A DNA stretch of 45,876 nucleotides, taken from positions 1 through 45,876 of the forward strand of contig PBZE01000047.1 of assembly GCA_002730095.1 (NCBI GenBank), written 5' to 3'. Source of the stretch: Methanobacteriota archaeon (lineage in GTDB: Archaea > Thermoplasmatota > Poseidoniia > Poseidoniales > Thalassarchaeaceae). The notes beneath the pieces were generated by a model. The model was not told the origin of the DNA, searched no databases, and saw only the letters and a list, made by a program, of their open reading frames with translations. Below are positions 30,957 through 45,876 of the stretch, piece after piece; position 1 is the first letter of the stretch, and every line of letters begins with the position of its first letter. The position numbers and the translations under genes are program-made.

Positions 30957-31385
30957 CTAACAGCATCCCTCTTCTTTCATCGGGGCGCTGATGAAGGATA
31001 CCTTGTCCACATGGGGCGTATTCTGAAGCTGCTCATAGACCGCCCTCACATGCGATGCAGTACCCCTGACGTGAACCACGTCTACACACAAATGGCACGA
31101 ATGTCCTAGCCGACTGCTGTGATGATACGCCGCTACCTCAACAGAATCAGTGCGACTCACCATCAACTTCTGCTCACTCTTCTCCTGATAATGAACGACC
31201 AAATGCCCCTCGACAATATGGCCATCATCCATATTCATCAAATCCCCTCTCTGCTGGATCTCCGCAAAGTACATCGATGCATCCCTGAGAAAGCGACTCC
31301 GGTTCTGATAGCCCGATTTTTCGATTAGACTTTCGAATGACTCAGCGAATTCCTTGTCAGCACTGAATGAAATTATTCTACTCAT
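30957..31385 (-). CDS. NikR/CopG-type ribbon-helix-helix metalloregulator
   Basis: IISFS.D....F......GY.NRS...RDA RHH domain; ACT-like C-domain with HH....GHSCHLC...V.G; divergent from the metal ABC operon. Confidence 0.8.
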   Translation of the reverse strand: MSRIISFSADKEFAESFESLIEKSGYQNRSRFLRDASMYFAEIQQRGDLMNMDDGHIVEGHLVVHYQEKSEQKLMVSRTDSVEVAAYHHSSRLGHSCHLCVDVVHVRGTASHVRAVYEQLQNTPHVDKVSFISAPMKEEGCC

Positions 31386-31399
31386 AGAACTCCGACAAA

Positions 31400-31474
31400 G
31401 CAATTAGTAATAATAATTTTGAATTATGTAATTATTAGCTTTAATTAAATATGTAATAGCTACCCGAAAGGGTA
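31400..31474. promoter_or_regulatory. AT-rich divergent promoter with candidate operator
   Basis: Inverted repeat TAATAATT-N11-AATTATTA (31411-31437); TATGTAAT direct repeat (31425, 31450); TACCC-GAAA-GGGTA hairpin (31461-31474). Confidence 0.55.
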
Positions 31475-33717
31475 TGAAGAGTGTAGCATACAGGTCAATA
31501 TTGCTAAGCGTACTAATGATTACATCAAGCCTTGCAGGCTGTCTAGGGGACACTGAAGAAGATAGTACTGATGATACCAATCAAATCGAGGATCCTATCA
31601 CTGTCTTCGGCTCAGTGATGGTTTCCACATATCACGTTGGTGAGCTGGTAAAGGCAGTAGCCGGAGAACATGTAGAGATCGACTACATGAGCCAGGATAA
31701 TATCCCTGTGCACGATTACGACCCATCAGCTTCTGATCTAATCAGACTACAACAGGCCGATGTCTTCTTTTATCACGGGTTGAACCTAGAACCTTGGGTT
31801 GACTCAGCTTTGGAGTCACTGGGTTCCGATGCACCCCTCTCTTTCATGACGCACAAAATGGCATCCGGAGAAACAACTCTAGATTACCAGTCTCTCTTAG
31901 TTGCTGACCTTTGTGAGCTGTTGAACCAAGGACCATTCGAAGCCACCACTCTGGGATCGATGCCGGAAGACCACGACGACCACGACGACGACCACGACGA
32001 TGACCACGACGATGACCACGACGACGAAGGCGGTATGCAGACTGCAGCGGGCCATGGCGACCACTCAGATGACGATGACCACGATGACCACGATGACCAC
32101 GATGACCATGAAGGACATGGTCACGCTATGGCCGAGAAGGTAATCCAGAATCCAGAGGCATGCCCGGCTGATACGACCATCCAGGTATTCCACATGGAAG
32201 AAGGTGAGCACGTACTAGAGTTCGAGTCAGAGCATGGGGAGGAGTTCAACATGGCGGTTCTAAAGATGCTAGGAGGGCACGCTCATCACCATCATGACCA
32301 TGGCGACGACCACGATGATGATCACTCGGACGACGAGGATGACCATGGTGAGGGATTGTGTCACAACACCGACACCCATGAGAACTACGAGTCGACGGAG
32401 GAAGACTGCGAGGCCGCAGGCCATATGTGGATGGGCCATGAAGATCATGATCTGCCAGAAATCCACGCGGACCGAGTTGCCCACACCCTCTCTTTCCCAA
32501 TTCACATAGCTGGGGACTGGGTAGACGAGTGGGGAGGTGAACACTCCATCGACTCAGACTCATGGAATGACAACACCATCACACACTATGATAATCATGA
32601 GATGTGGGCCGTCGCTCAGAACAGTGAGGATGATCAGTATTACCCAGGGCTCTGGTCGAAGTACGACTGGACATGGGAATTAGAAGAGCTGTACTACTGC
32701 CAGTCCACATTCGGCGCTGATACAGAGGCAGACGCATTGGCTGCCGAGAGCGCTAACGCTAGTGATTTAGCGGCCGGATGTGGTGGATTCCCGTGGAGCC
32801 TAATGGAAGAAGTCGGCCATGACGACCATGACGATCACGGAGACGACCACTCAGACGACGAGGGCGACCACGATGACGACCATGACGATCACGGAGACGA
32901 CCACTCAGACCACGAGGATGACCATGACGAACACCATGAAATTGGAGCAGTAATCATCCATATTGAGGAAGAAGGTGACTATGGATTTGCCATGCCCAGC
33001 GACATTGAACTCTATGTCGTAATGGGAGAAGGAGGGCATGACGACCATGGAGACCATGACGATCACGGAGACGACCACTCAGACGACGAGGGCGACCACG
33101 ATGACGACCACTCTGACGAGGATGGAGATCACGATGACCATGACGATGAGATTGAGGCTGACCAGGATGAGGAGTCATACGACTACGATCCACACAGCTG
33201 GCTCGATCCAGTTTCGTTCAACGAGCAACTCAAATTGGTTCAGGAAAAACTGACCATGGCCTTCCCAGATGGGGCTGTTGCATTCGCAGAAAACGCTGAT
33301 GCATACTCGATCGAGTTAACTGAGCTTCATGATCGCTTCGAGCAGGTACTGGGGAATCAAGGAACCTGTGTCACAGCAGGCTTGCAAAGGGTGATTGTGG
33401 CCAATCACAACGCTTACTCGTACATCTCGGTGAGGTACAATCTAGACATACTCACCATACATGGCTTAGATCCAGAAGGAGAGCCTTCACCAGCCGAAGT
33501 AGCTGAGGTCATTGAGCACATCAAGGAAGAGGGAATTACAACCCTCTTCGTTGAGGAATACACTGACCAGACAGCCGTTCAGAGCATCGTTGAGGAGACT
33601 GGCGTGGAGGTCCAGGTCCTATACACGATGGAGATGCGACCCAGTGATTCCTCGGATGACTACTTGTCCATGATGAACAAGAACATCGAAAACATATCTA
33701 GCGGAATTGGCTGCTAG
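31474..33717 (+). CDS. znuA: Metal (Zn/Mn cluster A-I) ABC transporter substrate-binding lipoprotein with giant His/Asp-rich insert
   Basis: LAGC lipobox, PVHDYDPS, FYHGLNLEPW, DPHSWLDP, HNAYSY, EPSPAE, DYLSMM..N. Confidence 0.85.
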   Translation: MKSVAYRSILLSVLMITSSLAGCLGDTEEDSTDDTNQIEDPITVFGSVMVSTYHVGELVKAVAGEHVEIDYMSQDNIPVHDYDPSASDLIRLQQADVFFYHGLNLEPWVDSALESLGSDAPLSFMTHKMASGETTLDYQSLLVADLCELLNQGPFEATTLGSMPEDHDDHDDDHDDDHDDDHDDEGGMQTAAGHGDHSDDDDHDDHDDHDDHEGHGHAMAEKVIQNPEACPADTTIQVFHMEEGEHVLEFESEHGEEFNMAVLKMLGGHAHHHHDHGDDHDDDHSDDEDDHGEGLCHNTDTHENYESTEEDCEAAGHMWMGHEDHDLPEIHADRVAHTLSFPIHIAGDWVDEWGGEHSIDSDSWNDNTITHYDNHEMWAVAQNSEDDQYYPGLWSKYDWTWELEELYYCQSTFGADTEADALAAESANASDLAAGCGGFPWSLMEEVGHDDHDDHGDDHSDDEGDHDDDHDDHGDDHSDHEDDHDEHHEIGAVIIHIEEEGDYGFAMPSDIELYVVMGEGGHDDHGDHDDHGDDHSDDEGDHDDDHSDEDGDHDDHDDEIEADQDEESYDYDPHSWLDPVSFNEQLKLVQEKLTMAFPDGAVAFAENADAYSIELTELHDRFEQVLGNQGTCVTAGLQRVIVANHNAYSYISVRYNLDILTIHGLDPEGEPSPAEVAEVIEHIKEEGITTLFVEEYTDQTAVQSIVEETGVEVQVLYTMEMRPSDSSDDYLSMMNKNIENISSGIGC
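31969..33150 (+). repeat. His/Asp-encoding low-complexity tracts, including a perfect 59-nt direct repeat (32824-32882 = 33052-33110) and a partial tandem copy (32875-32910)
   Basis: Direct sequence comparison; GAC/CAC/GAT codon arrays in several blocks. Confidence 0.85.
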
Positions 33718-33754
33718 ATCTGAACCATGTTTAACAAGAAGGAGGGGGGAATAG

Positions 33755-33856
33755 ATGTATTTGTCCGATGGACTACCCATAATTTTCGTGGGCTCTATTT
33801 TCCTCCTTCTTACATGTTGGTTAGGATACGAATACGTAAGGGCTAAGTATGCTTGA
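33755..33856 (+). CDS. Putative 33-aa single-pass membrane protein (MYLSDGLPIIFVGSIFLLLTCWLGYEYVRAKYA)
   Basis: Translated by hand; strong purine SD-like tract AAGGAGGGGGGA upstream; one hydrophobic helix with a basic tail; lies between znuA and znuC. Confidence 0.55.
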   Translation: MYLSDGLPIIFVGSIFLLLTCWLGYEYVRAKYA

Positions 33857-33942
33857 ACCAACAAATCTCCTTTTGTCATCCCTCTGTCTTCAGAGTTGGA
33901 ACGATTCTACATGCATTCGACAGGAGCTTAGTTCGTAGGGTG

Positions 33943-34734
33943 ATGATGTTGGGAAAGCCCATACTTGACGTCTGCGATCTTTCCGTGGTGAGGTCTGGTA
34001 AGCAAATCTTGGAAGACGTCTGTCTAACGGTAAATGAGGGAGAGTTCGTTGGCATAGTGGGTCCTAACGGAAGTGGCAAGTCCACATTCCTGCTATCCGT
34101 TCTCGGGATTCTGAAGGCAGAAAGTGGCTTTGTTGAGATATACGGCCTTCCTCCGACGTCAAGAAAGCTCCATAGAAAGATTGGCTGGGTTTCTCAAGCC
34201 GCGGCAAATCTTCCCAAGGATGTCAGAATTACCGTACGCGAGCTGGTCAGACTCGGAACGATAAACTCGGCAAATATGTTTGATTGGGCTGATAACGGGC
34301 GTAGAGAGAGAGTCGACAAAGCAATCAAGATGACAGGCCTCAAGGAAGTAGAGAATACTGACATTGGTCGATTATCGGGTGGTCAGAGACAACGTGCCGT
34401 CATCGCAAGAGCGTTGGCATCAGAGGCAGACTTCATTCTGCTGGATGAGCCACTGGTGGGAGTCGATCGAGACTCCAGAAACTCTCTGCTAAGGCTGCTA
34501 GACAGACTCTGTCACGACGAAGGGAAGACGATTCTGATGGTTTCTCACGATTTGACGGCGATACGTCAGACTGCACACAGGATGGTGTTCCTCGAGGGAT
34601 CTGTAAGATTTGATGGCCCCACCAAAAGCTTCCCGGATTTTCAGAGGCTGGCCGATTTGAGAGGAATTCAGGCAGTTCATGGTGATAAGGAAGTTTACTG
34701 GGAAACCACATCAAACCATAAGGAGGAATTGTGA
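33943..34734 (+). CDS. znuC: Metal ABC transporter ATP-binding protein
   Basis: GPNGSGKST, LSGGQRQR, LLDEP, VSHDL; the ORF-track start at 33853 is probably over-extended. Confidence 0.88.
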   Translation: MMLGKPILDVCDLSVVRSGKQILEDVCLTVNEGEFVGIVGPNGSGKSTFLLSVLGILKAESGFVEIYGLPPTSRKLHRKIGWVSQAAANLPKDVRITVRELVRLGTINSANMFDWADNGRRERVDKAIKMTGLKEVENTDIGRLSGGQRQRAVIARALASEADFILLDEPLVGVDRDSRNSLLRLLDRLCHDEGKTILMVSHDLTAIRQTAHRMVFLEGSVRFDGPTKSFPDFQRLADLRGIQAVHGDKEVYWETTSNHKEEL

Positions 34735-35702
34735 TGGGCCTAGGCATAGAGATTTTAGAGATTCTCGCACCAATCATGGAGTCACTTGCACCTCACATGC
34801 CGGGAGAGGTTTTCCCCGAATTTTTCACTTTAGAAATGTTCCAGCGTTCAATGCTTGCAGCCTTAATGGTAGCTATTGTGGGAGGATTCCTAGGGTCTTT
34901 CCTTCTCGTTCGTAATCTTGCATTGATAGGAGACGGACTGGCTCATGTTTCGTTCGGTGGAGTCGCCATCGGAATCGTTCTCGGAGCAACTTCTCCCCTA
35001 TGGTACGCCCTCATGTTCAGCCTCGCTGCTTCTATTCTGATTTACGAAATGCAAGCAAGAGAAATTCTAACTGGAGATGCCTCTATTGCTATTTTTCTGA
35101 CTGGAATGTTGGCACTCGGACTCGTGGTTCTCAGATACTATGGTGTGGGAATTACAGTTGAGGTTGAAAGCTACCTATGGGGGAGCCTTTTACTCACGTC
35201 CTCCGAAGATCTAGATTTGATTGCAGCTATCAGTGTGATGTCTTTCGTCCTTCTTTACCTGATTAAAGATCCATTGCTAGCAACTACTGTTGATCCATTG
35301 GCAGCATCAGTTCAGGGAATCCCTGTTCGCTTAATCGGCCTGGTTTTCAGTGCCATAACTGCGGCGGTCGTGGTGAGCATGGTGCAAGTCGTAGGCACTC
35401 TTCTTGTCACAGCTTTGCTGGTAACTCCCGCAGCCACTGCACAACAAGTAGGAAGGAGCTTTCGTTCATGTTTGATGTTTACACAGGTCTTCGGCATAAG
35501 CTCCGTTATCTTGGGCCTTTATTTCTCTGCAGAGCTCGATACGGGAAGCGGCTCAATGATCGCACTAGTTTCCGCCGTTATTTTCACTGTAGTAGTATAT
35601 CTGGCAAATGCCGACTGGCTTGCGCGTTCCTTTGCAAGCTTCCGACTACGGATCACAGGTATCTCCATACCATGGTTCGAGAGAGTCGCCCGCAGGAAAT
35701 AA
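34731..35702 (+). CDS. znuB: Metal ABC transporter permease
   Basis: GDGLAHVSFGG, SYLWGS, VGTLLV.ALLV.PAATA, SG..I; AAGGAGG SD. Confidence 0.88.
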   Translation: MMGLGIEILEILAPIMESLAPHMPGEVFPEFFTLEMFQRSMLAALMVAIVGGFLGSFLLVRNLALIGDGLAHVSFGGVAIGIVLGATSPLWYALMFSLAASILIYEMQAREILTGDASIAIFLTGMLALGLVVLRYYGVGITVEVESYLWGSLLLTSSEDLDLIAAISVMSFVLLYLIKDPLLATTVDPLAASVQGIPVRLIGLVFSAITAAVVVSMVQVVGTLLVTALLVTPAATAQQVGRSFRSCLMFTQVFGISSVILGLYFSAELDTGSGSMIALVSAVIFTVVVYLANADWLARSFASFRLRITGISIPWFERVARRK

Positions 35703-37220: not shown

Positions 37221-38189
37221 ATGATAATCAGCCGAACACCCCTCAGGGCGTCTTTCTGTGGCGGAGGAACGGACATAGACCAGTTCTCCAAATCCCATCA
37301 AGACGGAGGCAAGGTGGTCTCACTCGCCTTGGACAAATACATCTACGTCATCGTGAACAGGAGATTCGACAATAAAGTCAGGGTTTCATACTCGGCACTT
37401 GAGATTGTTGATGATTTTGAGAACCTGAGTCATGAGCTGGTCAGGGAAGCAATGAGAGTCACGGGAGTAACCTCCGGAGTCGAGATCACGACAATAGCTG
37501 ACATCCCATCCCGAGGGACCGGGCTAGGCTCCTCTTCTACAGTCACAGTAGGTCTACTAAACGCCCTTCACAAATTCGCTGGTCACGATGCATCACCGAA
37601 GCAGTTGGCCGAAGAGGCTTGCAGGATAGAGATTGAGGTTCTAGGGCAACCAATAGGGAGGCAGGACCAGTACGCTGCAGCATTCGGAGGCATCAATTCT
37701 ATTTCTTTTGGCACTGATGGAGTAACAGTAAAGCCCCTGAGGGTATCTTGCCAATCAGAGATTTGCGAGCAGTTCACATTAGTTTTTACCGGTCTATCTA
37801 GAAGTGCCTCAGATGTGCTAAAGGAAGAACCAGAAGATCCAGAAGACAAACTCTCTAGAATGAGAAAAATCAGGATTCAAGCAGACTTAGCCGAGGAGTA
37901 TCTTGAGTCATGTAACCTGTCTGACCTAGGTCTCCTCATTGGTGAGGCCTGGGAGGAAAAAAGAGGAATATCTTCCAGTGTAACACGAGATGAGATAGAT
38001 CTACTGCATCAGGAAATAATGTCAGTAGGTGCATCAGGTGCAAAGCTATTGGGGGCAGGAGGCGGCGGATTCTTCCTTGTTCACGGAACTGTGTCACTCA
38101 GGAAAGACCTCAACCTTTTGAAACGGGGTAACAAGCTAATCCCTGTAGGCTTGGACAACAAAGGCTCCACGATTATCTATGAAGGATGA
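37221..38189 (+). CDS. GHMP sugar kinase, HddA (heptose-7-phosphate kinase)-like
   Basis: SRTPLR.SF.GGGTD, GTGLGSSS, G.QDQYAAAFGG, GAKLLGAGGGGF; substrate uncertain. Confidence 0.8.
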   Translation: MIISRTPLRASFCGGGTDIDQFSKSHQDGGKVVSLALDKYIYVIVNRRFDNKVRVSYSALEIVDDFENLSHELVREAMRVTGVTSGVEITTIADIPSRGTGLGSSSTVTVGLLNALHKFAGHDASPKQLAEEACRIEIEVLGQPIGRQDQYAAAFGGINSISFGTDGVTVKPLRVSCQSEICEQFTLVFTGLSRSASDVLKEEPEDPEDKLSRMRKIRIQADLAEEYLESCNLSDLGLLIGEAWEEKRGISSSVTRDEIDLLHQEIMSVGASGAKLLGAGGGGFFLVHGTVSLRKDLNLLKRGNKLIPVGLDNKGSTIIYEG

Positions 38190-40327
38190 TTAGAATGAAA
38201 TCGGGAAAAACAGTCATTTGCCTCGCAATTATTCTCCTACTATCCCTATCCCCTCTCGTTCTCGCTGAGTCAGACGGTCAAGAGGAGCAGCCCGCCCAAC
38301 CACTCGAAATCATCGGTTACTCCAAACTCACTTTCCTCGGACCACTATCCTCCGACTCCATCATCAATACAACATGGGATTTACAGATATCAATTGGTGA
38401 GAACTATGGTACAGATCTACTGCCGAATCAGTCCTTAGGAATTAGAACCCAGATTGACAGATATTTGGGAGATGAAGATGGCTACCTGTCAGAGAACGAG
38501 ATTTCCTCTTTCTCGCAGATGATCTTGGCAGCAAGGTCATGGAATAATTCTGAACTGGCCGGATGTTGTATCTTCGACTATCGCCTTCTGACGCTCTCGA
38601 ATCCTGTGGTGATATCAATCTCCCCTCCCTCTGCTGGCCCAGTCGTCACTGAAAGCGAATCCAGATGGGGATGGAGCGAATCAGCAGATCTAGAGGCCAC
38701 CAGCGACCAGAGAACGACACGTCTCTTGGACCTGCCACGAACGGGTTCCCTCATTGAGGAAATCCCCCTTCTGGTGTCTTTACAGAGTCCATGGGAATTC
38801 AAGTTCAGTGCCATGCAGGAAGTCATTTCCGGAGAACCATCGAATTTCTCAATCCAGAGATCCGACTCTCCCGTGTACTCGACAATCAGAATCGCAATCG
38901 GACAGAACGACGTCCCATCAACAGACGTGAGCAGAACGCGGGGGACGTCAATCTCAGTCCCTCTCGATAGTCCTCTTAGTTTCTTCACAGAATGCAATGA
39001 CAGTGCTCTGGAGACTCCTTATTTCGAATGGGTATTCAGGAACAATGGAACCGTCGCTTACAGCACTTCAGGCAACCAATCGAAGGGCGAGAAGACGATC
39101 ATAACAGTCATTCCGGAGACATATGGATACTCATCGAAGGATGTGCTTGCTGCAGAACTGATCTGTAGGGACTCCCACGGCTCCTCGTCTAGCTGGTACG
39201 AAAACGTCATCGTTGATGGTGATGATCCAGAATATGAAATAAGGTTCACCGAGATCACCAATTCTGGGATAGTAATAGTACATAACGAATCTGAGGAAAT
39301 TATTCAGATAAGGTCGGACAGTGAGCTATTTGTTGATGTAATTGCAATGGACTCCTCAAATCTTCCTGTTTCCATAATAGTCGCCTCCAATAAGTCACAA
39401 GGGTGGAGGCAGTTCTCCAATGACGAACTCCACTTCTCCACCTCCTTCATCCAAGGGGCCCAAGTAAATGGGATGCATCTGCCTGTGGAAGAAAGGCACC
39501 TAGAGAGGCAGAACAGTCTTTGGAGACTTATCCTCAATGTTACTGATGAGGCTGGAAACACCATCATGAGAACGTGGCAAGTATTCGTGGAGGACTCGTC
39601 AGCTCCCGTCGTGATACCTTCAATATTCGTAAATTCGGATCCTATGACGCCCTCAAACCCACCACGTCTGGGAGACAATCTCTCGCTTTACCTCTCAGAC
39701 TCTTTTGACGATCTGGATAGCATCGAAGACACAATGTGGAATATTTCATTAGATGGCGAAATATACCGTCAAAATTTGAACTGGAGTGAGGCGGAAAAGA
39801 TACTACTCCCCCCTCTTGAAATAGGGGGTCATACAATAAACATACAATCCACGGATTCAAGTTCTAATTCCGGCAATCTTTCATTCCAAATCTCGATAGA
39901 GCCCCCTTTGGGCTTTTCAATAAAAGTAATTGACACCTTCTTTTCGGAGAGGCCCTCAATAGGAAACCCCGTCACAATCACCGTGTTCGCCGAGAATTCA
40001 CACTCATCCGTAGGATCGGCCAGATTGTGCTATCTGGCAGAATGTTCTGACTTTGTTCTCATGCCCGGGGCCCCATATGGTGGCTTCACACTAGAATTGG
40101 AAGTTACACCAGACAAGGCTGGTGTTTTGGATATGAGTATTGAATGGATAGGGACAGAGGATGGAGAGTCCGGGACTGTTGAATTATTAGAGGTAGTTAA
40201 TGTCATAGATACTCAAGCTGATACTTCCAATCATCAAATTCAGGCGTTCTTCTTAGTGCTCTCGATTTTACTCATTCTGACGATGGTGGCAAATCGCATT
40301 TGGGGAATCGACTCAATGAAGCCTTAG
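38186..40327 (+). CDS. Secreted, C-terminally anchored acidic surface protein (Ig-like beta modules likely)
   Basis: Signal peptide, beta-rich acidic body with VTDEAGN / TDSSSN strand motifs, C-terminal TM helix. Confidence 0.7.
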   Translation: MIRMKSGKTVICLAIILLLSLSPLVLAESDGQEEQPAQPLEIIGYSKLTFLGPLSSDSIINTTWDLQISIGENYGTDLLPNQSLGIRTQIDRYLGDEDGYLSENEISSFSQMILAARSWNNSELAGCCIFDYRLLTLSNPVVISISPPSAGPVVTESESRWGWSESADLEATSDQRTTRLLDLPRTGSLIEEIPLLVSLQSPWEFKFSAMQEVISGEPSNFSIQRSDSPVYSTIRIAIGQNDVPSTDVSRTRGTSISVPLDSPLSFFTECNDSALETPYFEWVFRNNGTVAYSTSGNQSKGEKTIITVIPETYGYSSKDVLAAELICRDSHGSSSSWYENVIVDGDDPEYEIRFTEITNSGIVIVHNESEEIIQIRSDSELFVDVIAMDSSNLPVSIIVASNKSQGWRQFSNDELHFSTSFIQGAQVNGMHLPVEERHLERQNSLWRLILNVTDEAGNTIMRTWQVFVEDSSAPVVIPSIFVNSDPMTPSNPPRLGDNLSLYLSDSFDDLDSIEDTMWNISLDGEIYRQNLNWSEAEKILLPPLEIGGHTINIQSTDSSSNSGNLSFQISIEPPLGFSIKVIDTFFSERPSIGNPVTITVFAENSHSSVGSARLCYLAECSDFVLMPGAPYGGFTLELEVTPDKAGVLDMSIEWIGTEDGESGTVELLEVVNVIDTQADTSNHQIQAFFLVLSILLILTMVANRIWGIDSMKP

Positions 40328-42089: not shown

Positions 42090-42177
42090 GGTAAGTACGC
42101 TCATTATTGCTGCTATTTCTTCCTATGTTGCCACATTCGTACCATTATTGATAGTCAAGAGCCTCATGCATCATGCC

Positions 42178-44289
42178 ATGGACCTAGTCCTCATCGGCTC
42201 CTTCATCCTCTTCATGACTGCATTCGCTGGAATCGGACTTGCCAGCATGTTGGTCAAAGAAGACACCACAGACGACTACCTAGTTGCTGGCAGGGGCATG
42301 CATCCAGCGCTAGCTGCACTATCAGCCGTCAGTACATGGAACTCTGGATACATGTTCATTGGTTACATAGGGTTTACTTTCACAATGGGCTACTCTATTG
42401 TGTGGATAGCTTTTGGATCTATGGCGGGACAGATATTGGCATGGATATGGTTGTACAAATTCATTCAGCAATCGGCCAATGAACGTGGACTCAGATCTCT
42501 ATCCTCCCTCGTCTCAGAGGCGACAGGGTCGCCCGAGGCGAAACTAGCTGCCGTTCTATCCATTCTTTTCCTATCCGTCTACGCTGCTGCTCAGCTGACT
42601 AGTGGGGGAAAGGCCCTCTACGTGATGCTGGGATGGTCCGAAGTAGTTGGAATCCTGATAGGATTTGTATTGGTCGTAGCCTATTGCTATGCCGGAGGGA
42701 TAAGGGCCTCGATTTGGACTGACGCAGCCCAATCCAGCGTCATGATCCTCGGATCCTCACTACTTTGCTGGGTGGCACTGGAACAGATAGGTGGGTTTTC
42801 TGGACTTCACTCAGGGTTGGACGGGCAGAATGCCAATCTAACCAGCATTGTGCCTGCAGATTTGGGATTCGGCGTGACCCTATGGGCATTCGCATTCTTC
42901 TTGGGTGGGCTCAGCGTAGCTGGGCAACCCCAGGTTGTCACTCGTGTTATGACACTTGGAACAGATAGAGACAGGAAGACTGCGATGCTGTGGTTCTTCG
43001 CTTGGCAGACTCCCTTCCTGCTCATCATGACAATAATCGGACTGTCCAGCCGAGTAGTTTTCTCAGGAGCAGATTTTGATCCAGAGCTGGGCCTTCCTAT
43101 GCTTGCTATGGAGACACTGGGGCCATTCTGGGTTGGCTTGATCCTAGCCTCAATTTTTGCAGCTACCATGTCAACTGCAGACAGTCAGGTTTTGGCTTGT
43201 ACCGCTGCATTTACTGATGATGTAATGCCCGAGATAAGCCAAGATCACAAGAAGACAAAGATGGTTACTCTAGTTGTGGCAGCTTTCGCCACTGCCATAT
43301 CCATCTTCGGACTCTATGTCCCGGGAGGGGATTCGGTCTTCTCCCTCGTAGTCCTAGCTGTGTACGGACTAGGATCCATCTTCGTTCCAATTCTAATTAT
43401 CAGATGGTCTGGTTACGAGCCTGATACAACTCACACCACGGCAATGATGATTGCAGCATTGACAGGGGTCATTGCGTGGAGGTTGATGGGACTCAACGAC
43501 GAGATATTCGAGTCCATACCAGGAATGGGGGCTGCATTCGTCACACATTTCGTGATGAATCAGATTCGTAGTTCTGATGTTTCTCCACTTGGTCGATTCG
43601 ACCTACCAGAAGGTCAGAAATTGAAAGTAATAGCAGCCTCAATAATCATACCATTCAGCGCGATAGAGGTAACATATTTCTTAGCTGGACCCGATAGCTA
43701 TGAGTATCAGAGGAATAATGAGTATCTGATTGACTTCGAAGAGGGGATGATTACTTGGGTGGATAACACCACAGTCGAACTAAGTGACGGTGAGGTTTTC
43801 TCCTTCTCGTTGACAGATCAGGAATTCCCAGAAGAGGCCAAAGAACGGAACATATTCTCCGTAGATTATACCGTAACAGTCCTAGATAGCTTTGATGATA
43901 ACGAGGAAACAAATGGCCCTGGGTGTGTCGTTGATCCCGGCCAAGATGAAGCCGATTCGGTATCTCTTTTCGTGAGTGCCCCCTCAAATACATCCTCTTT
44001 GGAAACCCAGTCCTCAGTATACGATTGGATTGACTTGATGGCTTTCCCTCAATTTGAAACATTTCCCTTCATAACTGGCTATACTGTAGCGGAAATAGAA
44101 ATGAGCTTCGATACTAGCGACTCGGTTGTTGGGGACTATTCATTTGAATTTACGGGGAATGTGGAATCAGGAGATTCGACATTTCAATGTGATAGACAAG
44201 ATTCTACTGTCACAATTGAATACCTAATTGAATTGTGGTGGGTCGAGCCGAATGTCTTGGAGTGGAACGATGATGACATCTTTTTTTGA
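42178..44289 (+). CDS. Sodium:solute symporter (PutP-like) with extra acidic C-terminal domain
   Basis: DYLVAGR, ALSA..T..SGYMFIG, GG..ASIWTD..Q, GQP, A.MSTADSQ; ~200-aa extension after a final TM helix. Confidence 0.88.
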   Translation: MDLVLIGSFILFMTAFAGIGLASMLVKEDTTDDYLVAGRGMHPALAALSAVSTWNSGYMFIGYIGFTFTMGYSIVWIAFGSMAGQILAWIWLYKFIQQSANERGLRSLSSLVSEATGSPEAKLAAVLSILFLSVYAAAQLTSGGKALYVMLGWSEVVGILIGFVLVVAYCYAGGIRASIWTDAAQSSVMILGSSLLCWVALEQIGGFSGLHSGLDGQNANLTSIVPADLGFGVTLWAFAFFLGGLSVAGQPQVVTRVMTLGTDRDRKTAMLWFFAWQTPFLLIMTIIGLSSRVVFSGADFDPELGLPMLAMETLGPFWVGLILASIFAATMSTADSQVLACTAAFTDDVMPEISQDHKKTKMVTLVVAAFATAISIFGLYVPGGDSVFSLVVLAVYGLGSIFVPILIIRWSGYEPDTTHTTAMMIAALTGVIAWRLMGLNDEIFESIPGMGAAFVTHFVMNQIRSSDVSPLGRFDLPEGQKLKVIAASIIIPFSAIEVTYFLAGPDSYEYQRNNEYLIDFEEGMITWVDNTTVELSDGEVFSFSLTDQEFPEEAKERNIFSVDYTVTVLDSFDDNEETNGPGCVVDPGQDEADSVSLFVSAPSNTSSLETQSSVYDWIDLMAFPQFETFPFITGYTVAEIEMSFDTSDSVVGDYSFEFTGNVESGDSTFQCDRQDSTVTIEYLIELWWVEPNVLEWNDDDIFF

Positions 44290-44377
44290 TCGATGATGAT
44301 GGTGGTGAGATGGAAAACTAAGCCATACTGTTCGATCTCTAAATAATATTAAATAATCCATGAATAGACAAAGTATC

Positions 44378-44443
44378 ATGAATTGTGACTGCTGTGATTG
44401 CAGCCCATGTGGCGCAAACTGTGGATGTAACGGTTGCTGCTAG
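44378..44443 (+). CDS. Putative metallothionein-like micro-protein (MNCDCCDCSPCGANCGCNGCC)
   Basis: Translated by hand: 9 Cys in 21 aa, mixed TGT/TGC codons, AT-rich TATA-like tract 44340-44357 upstream; in-frame upstream ATG at 44360. Confidence 0.7.
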   Translation: MNCDCCDCSPCGANCGCNGCC

Positions 44444-44452
44444 GCGCCAACC

Positions 44453-44758
44453 CTAATCATCCAGTCGTATCTTGCCCCGCCCCTTATTCTGTATTTTTCC
44501 GACAGACGTTGTCAAAATCCGGGGTTCTCTTCCCCTAGCTGCTAGGGAAAGAATCCACCAACCAACCGTCAGTAGGGCGGTTGAAACCATTATGACAGTT
44601 CCCACCCACATCACGATATTCCCCTCTGTGACTGGCCAAGCCCAATATGAGACACCTAGCACAACCACTACAAGCAGTATTCTAGAAGCTTCACTGGGTG
44701 TTTTCCAACCTCTGTGGTCCCTCCTCGGAGCTAGCAAGTAGTCTAGCATACACCTCAC
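44453..44758 (-). CDS. Small two-TM membrane protein
   Basis: Two hydrophobic helices and a basic tail; co-oriented with gins; start may be ATG 44749. Confidence 0.6.
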   Translation of the reverse strand: MRCMLDYLLAPRRDHRGWKTPSEASRILLVVVVLGVSYWAWPVTEGNIVMWVGTVIMVSTALLTVGWWILSLAARGREPRILTTSVGKIQNKGRGKIRLDD

Positions 44759-44794
44759 TAAGAGAATGTACTTTTCAACAACTGTTTCAATCCG

Positions 44795-45679
44795 TCAAAT
44801 ATCCGCAGCCTCTGCTATGCCTGCAGCAATGAGGGTGTCAGCTATGATGGAAGGACAGAACTCTATGTCTCCCGTTTTGAGAGTTATTTCTTCGCCATTT
44901 TCAGTAATTATTGGGTCATCGAGGTCCTGTAGTATCAGAATCCTCCTCATTTCGGGCTCCTCTCGAACTTCCTCCCTCGTCTCTGAGTGAGGATTTACAG
45001 CCCCTGATATCTCAGGGAAGTCATCTATCTCCCTTATCCTGTCCTCTTCATCGTACTCAGGGTCTTCCCAATGCGACCCCTGCTCCTGAGGTTCCGGGCC
45101 CTCGCTTTCCACGATGGGTGGCTCCTCCACGGCCTCGCCGGGAACGAATTCTGTAAGAGGGGTATGGACGGAAGAGAGAGGGGGCGGTGCAGGTGTATCC
45201 CAATTGTTGCTGAGCAGAGATCTCCACGAGACATCATGCTTGTATTTGTCAACCAGATGGCCAACGCCAGAGTAGAAAGCTCTCTCAGATGGATCGTGCT
45301 TCTCCCATTCAATCGGATCCGGACGCATTCCAGGAGCGAGAGCGCCCTCTTCAGGTGATTGAATCAGGCTCATCAGTACGGCATGCTGAGTGAAAGCATT
45401 GAGCCTGTTTCTCGTCAGGTCCTTCACCGCAGTCCTGACAACGCCAAGCTTTCTGGATTGTAACTGGGCCTTCGCAGTCATACCCTCCGACCTGATTGTC
45501 TCAGCCAATTCAGCCTCCAGATGCTGAACTAACTGACCTACTGCGCTCCAGAATCCTGGCATCGGCAGCTCGATTGGAATCGATGATCTTCGCTGCGTTC
45601 TAGCAAGCTCATCGAGGGCCCTGTCAACTGCCATAAGACGGCTTGGACTGAGCCTAGGCAAGCTTCCGTCGTCCATCAT
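44795..45679 (-). CDS. GINS subunit (Gins51-type: A domain, acidic linker, B domain)
   Basis: Helical N-domain (LP..GFW..V...V..L, R......A, E..FY); C-terminal RILILQDL..PI..ENG....L..GDI...P..IA..LI..G.A fits a GINS B domain. Confidence 0.7.
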   Translation of the reverse strand: MMDDGSLPRLSPSRLMAVDRALDELARTQRRSSIPIELPMPGFWSAVGQLVQHLEAELAETIRSEGMTAKAQLQSRKLGVVRTAVKDLTRNRLNAFTQHAVLMSLIQSPEEGALAPGMRPDPIEWEKHDPSERAFYSGVGHLVDKYKHDVSWRSLLSNNWDTPAPPPLSSVHTPLTEFVPGEAVEEPPIVESEGPEPQEQGSHWEDPEYDEEDRIREIDDFPEISGAVNPHSETREEVREEPEMRRILILQDLDDPIITENGEEITLKTGDIEFCPSIIADTLIAAGIAEAADI

Positions 45680-45791: not shown

Positions 45792-45876
45792 GCAGGTGTA
45801 CCCGAGTGGTCAAAGGGGGAGGGCTCAAGATCCTCTGCGTAGTGCTTCGCAGGTTCGAATCCTGCCGCCTGCACCA
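45792..45876 (+). tRNA. tRNA-Leu (anticodon CAA), CCA encoded
   Basis: Acceptor GCAGGTG/CGCCTGC, D-loop AGTGGT, anticodon arm GAGGG-CTCAAGA-TCCTC, long variable arm, GTTCGAATC T-loop, ACCA end. Confidence 0.96.

Follow-up and report, generated by a model that had tools for sequence, protein, structure and literature searches.

According to one account, the shortest metallothioneins reported are the fungal Cu-thioneins, with 26 amino acids and 7 Cys (PMC4755600). For marine Synechococcus, the gene of the metallothionein BmtA/SmtA has been placed under Zur, the sensor controlling znuABC, with Zur acting as activator in the source cited (PMC9337993). A review gives three metal ions as the usual load of the N-terminal beta-domain of animal metallothioneins, and denies archaea any metallothionein (PMC3600143). 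Here, a 21-codon micro-gene for a metallothionein-like peptide is described from an archaeon of the family Thalassarchaeaceae, order Poseidoniales. The gene lies near the end of a stretch of 45,876 nucleotides (the window: contig PBZE01000047.1 of assembly GCA_002730095.1, here C47), which belongs to a 1.28-Mb genome in 52 contigs that is 79.5% complete. An earlier interpretation made from the letters of the window (the sequence-only reading) had proposed a stand-alone archaeal micro-metallothionein below gene-caller thresholds and knew of no well-characterised archaeal one, which agrees with the statement of the review. No paper was found in the literature searched with "archaeal metallothionein", nor with "metallothionein" together with "Marine Group II", and searches on Poseidoniales and zinc, or on NikR with archaea, zinc or znuA, seen mostly as listings, gave nothing describing the micro-gene or the regulon presented below.

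A conserved gene of 21 codons

The frame and the translation originally proposed for the micro-gene were reproduced. The open reading frame (ORF) encodes MNCDCCDCSPCGANCGCNGCC, 21 residues including 9 Cys (43%) in CxC, CC and CxxC arrangements, of which five are encoded by TGT and four by TGC (codons 44378-44443: ATG AAT TGT GAC TGC TGT GAT TGC AGC CCA TGT GGC GCA AAC TGT GGA TGT AAC GGT TGC TGC TAG). With its 9 Cys it is the most Cys-dense 21-residue segment in the six frames of the genome, the runners-up having 8 and 8, and the genome-wide expectation for at least 9 Cys in 20 codons is 0.0026 segments under an independent-codon model. An in-frame ATG at 44360 would extend the product to 27 aa, but the residues preceding the Met at 44378 vary among relatives.

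In a DNA search with 601 nt, the micro-ORF alone was matched in several genera. A pattern search detected the 21-codon frame with nine identically spaced Cys in 43 of the 226 genomes of the family, distributed over 7 of its 13 genera, while the reversed pattern had no match in the same 226 genomes. The micro-gene also occurs in at least 14 of the 199 genomes of a second family belonging to the order; the pattern used there was looser and picked up many simple repeats, which were discarded, and the number refers to non-repeat, 0-mismatch matches among those listed, with 13 further matches outside this count. A sample of the phylum (401 genomes) gave 8 true matches, all inside the order, and none in the 306 genomes outside it (0 of 10 from the same class, 0 true matches in the 296 others); the restriction to the order is that of this sampled-phylum search and of no other. 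At least 116 metagenome contigs carry the micro-gene as well, and a scan of viral contigs with its pattern yielded no match. A loose Cys-only pattern run over the genome collection was abandoned: it returned at least 120 stretches, and those inspected were TGY simple repeats.

Both ends of the gene are fixed. Every intact copy encodes 21 aa; the 43 family loci include 39 ATG and 3 GTG starts, and a stop codon directly follows the final CC in all of them. The search pattern used for metagenomes specified no start codon, and in all 116 contigs listed the first Cys is preceded, at a distance of exactly two codons, by an ATG (113) or a GTG (3). Among 48 unique ORFs, the position of the stop is constant and its identity free (TAG 11, TAA 16, TGA 21), none of the 9 Cys varies, and TGT and TGC occur together in every Cys column, in line with the earlier remark that the mixed Cys codons of the window copy do not form a simple repeat. 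In the same set, entropy amounts to 0.39, 0.28 and 1.12 at the three codon positions, and the ratio of non-synonymous to synonymous differences per site (pN/pS) is 0.14, at a saturated pS of 0.84. Variation at the Cys codons is thus synonymous, with invariant Cys columns and free wobble positions, and both frame and Cys spacing are kept in relatives, as expected if the sequence-only reading were correct. None of 8 exact peptide variants, the commonest included, occurs in a collection of 15 billion proteins, which together with the strong purifying selection bears out the notion of a stand-alone gene that escapes gene callers.

It could still be argued that the locus is untranslated, i.e. a DNA or RNA element, a feature of the 3' untranslated region of the convergent 101-aa gene, or a chance ORF, given that the RNA contigs described below are strandless and also extend over the antisense ORF, and that Rfam matches, all of them sub-threshold, are found nearby. 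However, the three-base periodicity of substitutions, the invariant Cys codons with free wobble, the fixed start and stop positions with three stop codons in use, and the retention of the gene in unrelated neighbourhoods render this explanation hardly credible. Since conservation across relatives excludes a chance origin, the micro-gene is almost certainly a real gene with a translated frame.

Two decayed copies were also noted, L161 (genome G007) and L206 (genome G346, of the second family), in which the start codon is gone and the promoter box degenerate. L161 has lost its first Cys as well, and one decayed copy has Tyr in place of the first Cys. In genome G054, contig C22 and the end of contig C10 bear identical copies of micro-gene and promoter, probably an assembly duplicate and not a paralogue.

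Composition of the peptide

Metallothioneins are an operational class, with criteria that follow the definitions of Kagi and Binz. All 78 distinct peptides identified combine low mass (21 aa), a high content of Cys (42.9%) in CxC, CC and CxxC arrangements and absence of aromatic residues; F, W, Y, H and R are missing altogether and Lys is rare, so that the metallothionein-like composition first noted for the window copy holds in every variant. The nine Cys positions are invariant and P10 (75/78 peptides), G12 (77/78), D18 and G19 nearly so, giving a family pattern M-x-C-x-C-C-x-C-x-P-C-G-x-x-C-x-C-D-G-C-C, of which the MPCDCCDCDPCGPSCSCDGCC type is a common variant. Net charge is mostly -2 to -4.

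Other functions could be envisaged for so short a Cys-rich peptide. Haloarchaea are known to possess small zinc-finger micro-proteins rich in Cys, and the near-invariant central C-x-P-C-G (P10, G12) would suit a structural zinc knuckle, or a site for another cofactor such as an iron-sulfur (Fe-S) cluster, with a non-homeostatic role. We consider this improbable, as nine Cys per 21 residues exceed the need of a single site, the ferredoxin-type spacing CxxCxxCxxxCP is absent, and the regulon link described below points to zinc handling. Its shortness and richness in Cys are also reminiscent of precursors of ribosomally synthesised and post-translationally modified peptides (RiPPs), from which a modified or secreted product would be released. 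This is very improbable: a leader region and a signal peptide are lacking, all 21 residues are constrained, and neighbourhoods vary widely, with no recurrent gene for a radical-SAM enzyme, cyclase or protease. Instead, the data argue, with reasonable rather than full confidence, for a metallothionein-like thiolate peptide that represents a new order-specific family and would act in zinc homeostasis. By its sequence, it looks like the shortest and most Cys-dense metallothionein candidate so far.

Association with zinc-uptake genes and their operator

The window also contains znuABC, 8.7 kb upstream of the micro-gene, encoding a ZnuA of 747 aa with very large His/Asp-rich loops, and, divergent from it, the gene of a 142-aa NikR-like ribbon-helix-helix (RHH) regulator. 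The latter protein matches NCBIfam NikR with E=1.6e-8, below cut-offs, and Pfam RHH_1 and NikR_C with E-values of 6e-4 and 5.5e-3, respectively. A perfect palindromic operator separates the two transcription units (Table 1). With up to 2 mismatches allowed, just two such sites occur in the genome (control 0), one at znuA and the other upstream of a COG0523/CobW GTPase gene. This gene is located outside the window (contig C15, ~8772) and encodes 399 aa; its operator, at a distance of 44 nt upstream, deviates by 1 mismatch. In both families, the operator was present at all 13 loci that include the 5' end of znuA, 34-35 nt upstream in 12 cases and 20 nt upstream in one.

The AT-rich box preceding the micro-gene corresponds, in most relatives, to the right arm of this bipartite operator. 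Of 52 micro-gene promoters scored with a weight matrix trained only on the 13 znuA operators, 26 exceeded the 99.999% quantile of genome background, with the site in the same position throughout, and most of the remaining loci of type A, one of two micro-gene types, score just under this threshold at the same place. On the metagenome contigs listed, 48 operator sites directly precede the micro-gene, i.e. in 48 of 116 promoters, as against 11 elsewhere (777 kb; control 2). Seven of these 11 were examined, and five precede COG0523, a YpdA-like gene, or NikR-like and ZnuA genes, with nothing nameable at the other two. In G160, G145 and G067, three genomes from the genus to which the window belongs, perfect sites number only 2-3 per genome and are found at the micro-gene promoter, at znuA with the NikR-like gene, and at a gene for a YpdA-like Pyr_redox_3 flavoprotein; in G009, G191 and G199, the sole other copy of the bipartite element precedes a ZnuA-like or ZIP gene. 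In genera without the micro-gene, the operator was found in none of 5 genomes from three genera. The 11-nt spacer is conserved at type-A micro-genes (TAGATACCTTT or TGGATACCTCT; e.g. L164, L166, L025) and variable at znuA; the conserved spacer may represent a second recognition element.

Physical proximity points in the same direction. Zinc genes (COG0523, DUF1636-like, NikR-like with ZnuA) lie within 1.5 kb of the micro-gene, in several arrangements and orientations, at 7 of 52 genome loci and 13 of the 116 listed metagenome loci, and COG0523 adjoins it in 5 of the 52. In genus tallies, ZnuA is present in all 11 genera with the micro-gene, and the micro-gene in none of the 7 genera without a ZnuA match. 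The presence of the zinc-regulon operator in promoters of relatives, together with the adjacency to zinc genes, strengthens the link to metal, and operator sharing would place the micro-gene of many relatives in the circuit that controls zinc uptake. The NikR-like regulator probably senses Zn rather than Ni, because it appears to control a ZnuA-type transporter with His/Asp-rich loops, ZIP and COG0523. No description of a NikR-type sensor for a Znu system was found in the literature searched.

The YpdA-like flavoprotein has 390 aa (L270:553-1722 (+); also L271, L281, L268 and L320), and its gene features a perfect operator 35 nt upstream in 4 of the 5 genomes examined. Among named proteins it comes closest to the putative bacillithiol disulfide reductase of the YpdA family (E=1.4e-24, below cut-off), which makes it a candidate thiol-disulfide reductase of the zinc regulon. 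In the assembly that contains the window, the gene was not found. The 16 distinct NikR-like regulators compared (L176, L185, L229, L230, L238, L250-L252, L258, L260, L263, L272, L280, L282, L322 and L375) all end in [GD]CC-COOH, and the micro-peptide ends in DGCC-COOH.

These observations also leave room for a peptide of the zinc regulon that is no storage or buffer metallothionein: a gene-encoded low-molecular-weight thiol or redox buffer recycled by the YpdA-like reductase, or else a partner, in metal transfer or as modulator, for the NikR-like sensor or for COG0523. The operator shared with the reductase gene, the regulator tails mirrored by that of the peptide, and the adjoining COG0523 loci speak for such a role. 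On the other hand, nine clustered thiols with CxC, CC and CxxCG are typical of cluster-forming metal binders, and redox and metal-buffer roles are not mutually exclusive. We regard this alternative as unlikely, though worth keeping in mind.

Promoter and transcription

The direct repeat of TAAATAAT announced in the sequence-only reading is present 21-38 nt before the ATG (Table 1). Between the end of an AT-rich 10-mer (TAAATAATAA or TAATTATTAA) and the start codon lie exactly 17 nt in 45 of 49 anchored loci, and 18 nt in the window; the 17 intervening bases are not conserved. Such fixed spacing is predicted by a leaderless mRNA and upholds the suggestion of a TATA-like tract at leaderless distance; the mRNA is thus probably leaderless, with the downstream box as its putative promoter. 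A genome-wide profile of 489 long ORFs has a mild rise in A+T at -28 to -24, which is compatible with leaderless transcription but not decisive. The arrangement AATAAT-N2-TAAATAAT is unique in the genome at 0 mismatches. A regulon based on the type-B repeat was considered and rejected, as the repeat has no second exact copy and a single 1-mismatch match, upstream of a 477-aa ORF.

Contigs from RNA libraries of two studies (at least 99% identity) span the whole micro-ORF (X1, 44328-44735; X2, 44301-44753), and two others (X3 and X7) cover it partly; the contigs of the four libraries lie on 44301-44753. This provides a weak hint of transcription of the micro-gene, as contigs of this kind carry no information on strand, start or expression level. 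Within 43694-44257 and 44775-45000, the flanking symporter and the 294-aa ORF had no RNA contigs, an absence of cover that is not evidence.

Genomic context

In the window, the micro-gene lies between a gene for a 713-aa sodium:solute symporter (PF00474) and a convergent ORF for a 101-aa membrane-like protein. The expectation of synteny on the symporter side failed, since a symporter neighbours the micro-gene in just 8 of 52 genome loci. Neighbours vary, and include SSF, MscS, SelO, SIR2, TM2, M20 peptidase, Pirin and COG0523, among others; no maturase or constant operon partner was seen in the neighbourhoods of the micro-gene. A cis-acting leader peptide or attenuator was likewise dismissed, as the downstream gene differs from locus to locus, is often on the opposite strand, and is convergent in the window.

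An MscS-type channel gene follows 58-87 nt downstream on the same strand at 9 genome loci of one genus (L025, L027, L177, L178, L183, L186, L187, L189 and L190) and on 23 of the 116 listed metagenome contigs. MscS channels can admit copper, according to a paper of 2025 (PMC12198049). The association was set aside as functional evidence and taken as lineage-specific synteny.

The 101-aa convergent ORF has ~72-76% DNA identity within the genus, and RNA-library contigs cover all of it. At the end of the symporter gene (44266-44337), where ATGATGA occurs twice, sub-threshold Rfam matches to archaeal C/D-box sRNA families were obtained on the + strand (the best reaching 19 bits where the gathering score is 38), and are probably not significant. 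As archaeal markers, the window has regions that resemble pantoate kinase and PriS, a primase subunit.

Table 1. Features of the window considered in the text (positions of the window).
Feature	Position	Strand	Remarks
NikR-like ribbon-helix-helix regulator	30957..31385	-	142 aa, ends GCC; divergent from znuA
Palindromic operator, perfect	31411..31437		TAATAATT-N11-AATTATTA; between znuABC and divergent NikR-like gene
znuA (31474-33717), znuC (33853-34734), znuB (34731-35702)	31474..35702	+	Pfam ZnuA 5e-39, ABC_tran 3e-29, ABC-3 2e-56
713-aa ORF upstream of symporter	38186-40327	+	no match in Pfam and NCBIfam
Sodium:solute symporter (SSF)	42148-44289	+	PF00474; ~290-aa C-terminal extension beyond Pfam domain
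TAAATAAT, upstream copy of direct repeat	44340..44347	+	type-B promoter feature; seen in sequence
TAAATAAT, TATA-like box	44350..44357	+	20 nt before ATG; aligns with conserved 10-mer of relatives
Micro-gene, coding sequence	44378..44443	+	21 codons and TAG (44441-44443); MNCDCCDCSPCGANCGCNGCC
101-aa ORF, two-helix membrane-like	44453-44758	-	convergent with micro-gene; no match in Pfam/NCBIfam
T5 run, possible oligo-T terminator	44494..44498	+	50 nt past stop codon; predicted from sequence
tRNA-Leu(CAA)	45792-45876		

Proposed function

In the reading preferred here, the micro-gene would be transcribed independently and yield a cytoplasmic, acidic 21-residue peptide. Its nine invariant Cys may fold around a metal-thiolate cluster, either M(II)3Cys9 as in a metallothionein beta-domain or a Cu(I) cluster, and the peptide should fold only around metal because of its nine thiolates, acidic spacers and central CxPCG knuckle and for want of a hydrophobic core. 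The NikR-like regulator would control the micro-gene in many species together with znuABC, ZIP, the COG0523 metallochaperone-type GTPase and the YpdA-like reductase. The coincidence of the operator with the TATA region suggests promoter occlusion and co-expression with zinc uptake: the metal-loaded NikR-like protein would block the promoter, and the peptide would be made along with the uptake genes at low zinc. The NikR-like protein is thus probably a repressor of the micro-gene; the gene with its boundaries, the selection on it, its distribution, the shared operator and the adjacency to zinc genes are observed, and we infer metal binding, the metal bound, the stoichiometry, the sign of regulation and the leaderless start. 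Control of the opposite sign, i.e. activation, is possible by analogy with Synechococcus, where Zur activates the metallothionein gene. The peptide would provide imported Zn with a high-affinity cytosolic buffer or relay, and Cd or Cu entering by the same routes with a sink, its thiols being kept reduced by the YpdA-like enzyme.

Several observations weigh against this interpretation. Searches of Pfam (E<=10; E<=1 for the 27-aa form) and NCBIfam returned no family at all, metallothionein families included, although the composition filters of HMMER may hide such matches, and a family-profile search of PDB chains at E<=10 gave 0 matches. Of the micro-metallothionein claimed from sequence, the conserved stand-alone gene and the composition stand; no sequence-defined metallothionein family was matched. 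The distribution is patchy, with the micro-gene in just 2 of the 26 near-complete genomes of the family, and the gene must therefore be accessory. Related genomes are not independent, so that co-occurrence counts overstate their support. The operator found in about half of the promoters of relatives is not that of the window's own micro-gene, which has a matrix score of -14.4, lacks the left arm and has no site within 2 mismatches. The type-B subgroup to which this copy belongs (MNC.../MDC...) is without operator at its 8 intact genome loci (the window copy and 7 others). RNA contigs are unstranded, also lie over the convergent 101-aa ORF, and reach upstream of the proposed start. Finally, where an operator overlaps the TATA box, the peptide is expected to be repressed together with uptake genes, contrary to a classical metallothionein, which is made at excess metal. 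As for type B, 4 of the 8 loci lie beside COG0523 or NikR-like and ZnuA genes, one metagenome type-B locus has an intergenic region with a perfect operator in common with a divergent COG0523 gene, and no genome carries both micro-gene types.

It is tempting to speculate that the micro-gene encodes the first archaeal and smallest metallothionein, a core output of a NikR-like sensor with the same C-terminal GCC tail, switched on with ZnuABC, ZIP, COG0523 and the reductase when zinc is scarce, that routes Zn and traps co-imported Cd or Cu. Taken as a whole, this extended scenario is tentative, and we would not be surprised to see it fail in one or another of its parts. If true, a conserved, unannotated metallothionein-like gene would fill a gap in a group that ranks among the most abundant archaea of the surface ocean, and the lower size limit of metallothioneins would move to 21 aa from the 26 aa given for fungi in the source cited (PMC4755600). 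Plankton of the surface ocean would then contain a sizeable and so far invisible pool of strong Zn, Cd and Cu ligands. How heterotrophic archaea handle picomolar zinc along with co-imported cadmium or copper would become a testable question, for which the compact zinc regulon, with its NikR-like sensor and palindromic operator, offers experimental handles. More generally, metal homeostasis may have core parts encoded by genes that fall under the 30-codon cut-off of gene callers.

Comparison with known systems

Phytochelatins and bacillithiol, both small and rich in thiols, act as buffers of Zn, Cd and Cu, and YpdA-family reductases recycle such a low-molecular-weight thiol. Unlike these compounds, which are made enzymatically, the archaeal peptide is gene-encoded, and the reductase associated with its regulon is YpdA-like, with a score below cut-off. 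The Cu-thioneins of Neurospora crassa and Agaricus bisporus (metallothionein family 8) are likewise stand-alone, single-domain, very short and Cys-rich, with small spacers. The archaeal peptide differs from them by its 21 aa with 9 Cys, its CC pairs and its terminal GCC, and homology could not be shown. The Cys spacing of fungal Cu-thioneins, compared as an unaligned pattern, is also different.

The beta-domain of animal metallothioneins binds three divalent ions and has nine Cys, as does the archaeal peptide, whose putative stoichiometry is modelled on it. However, this domain comprises ~30 residues inside a two-domain protein and has no sequence relation to the micro-peptide. BmtA/SmtA resembles the micro-peptide in setting, being prokaryotic, from the same low-zinc habitat, and encoded by a gene under the sensor of znuABC. 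BmtA, a protein of ~56 aa with a zinc-finger-like fold, has His ligands. Its activator is Zn-Zur and its role storage, whereas the archaeal peptide has no Pfam match and is linked to a NikR-like sensor, with an operator over the TATA box that suggests co-repression.

The NikR operator of Helicobacter pylori is partly palindromic and AT-rich, with an 11-bp spacer. The archaeal regulon resembles NikR regulons in the RHH fold and C-terminal metal-binding domain of its regulator, in its AT-rich palindrome with an 11-nt spacer, and in the divergent uptake operon. It differs in that the regulator scores below the NikR cut-offs, ends in a [GD]CC tail, and appears to control a ZnuA-type transporter, ZIP and COG0523.

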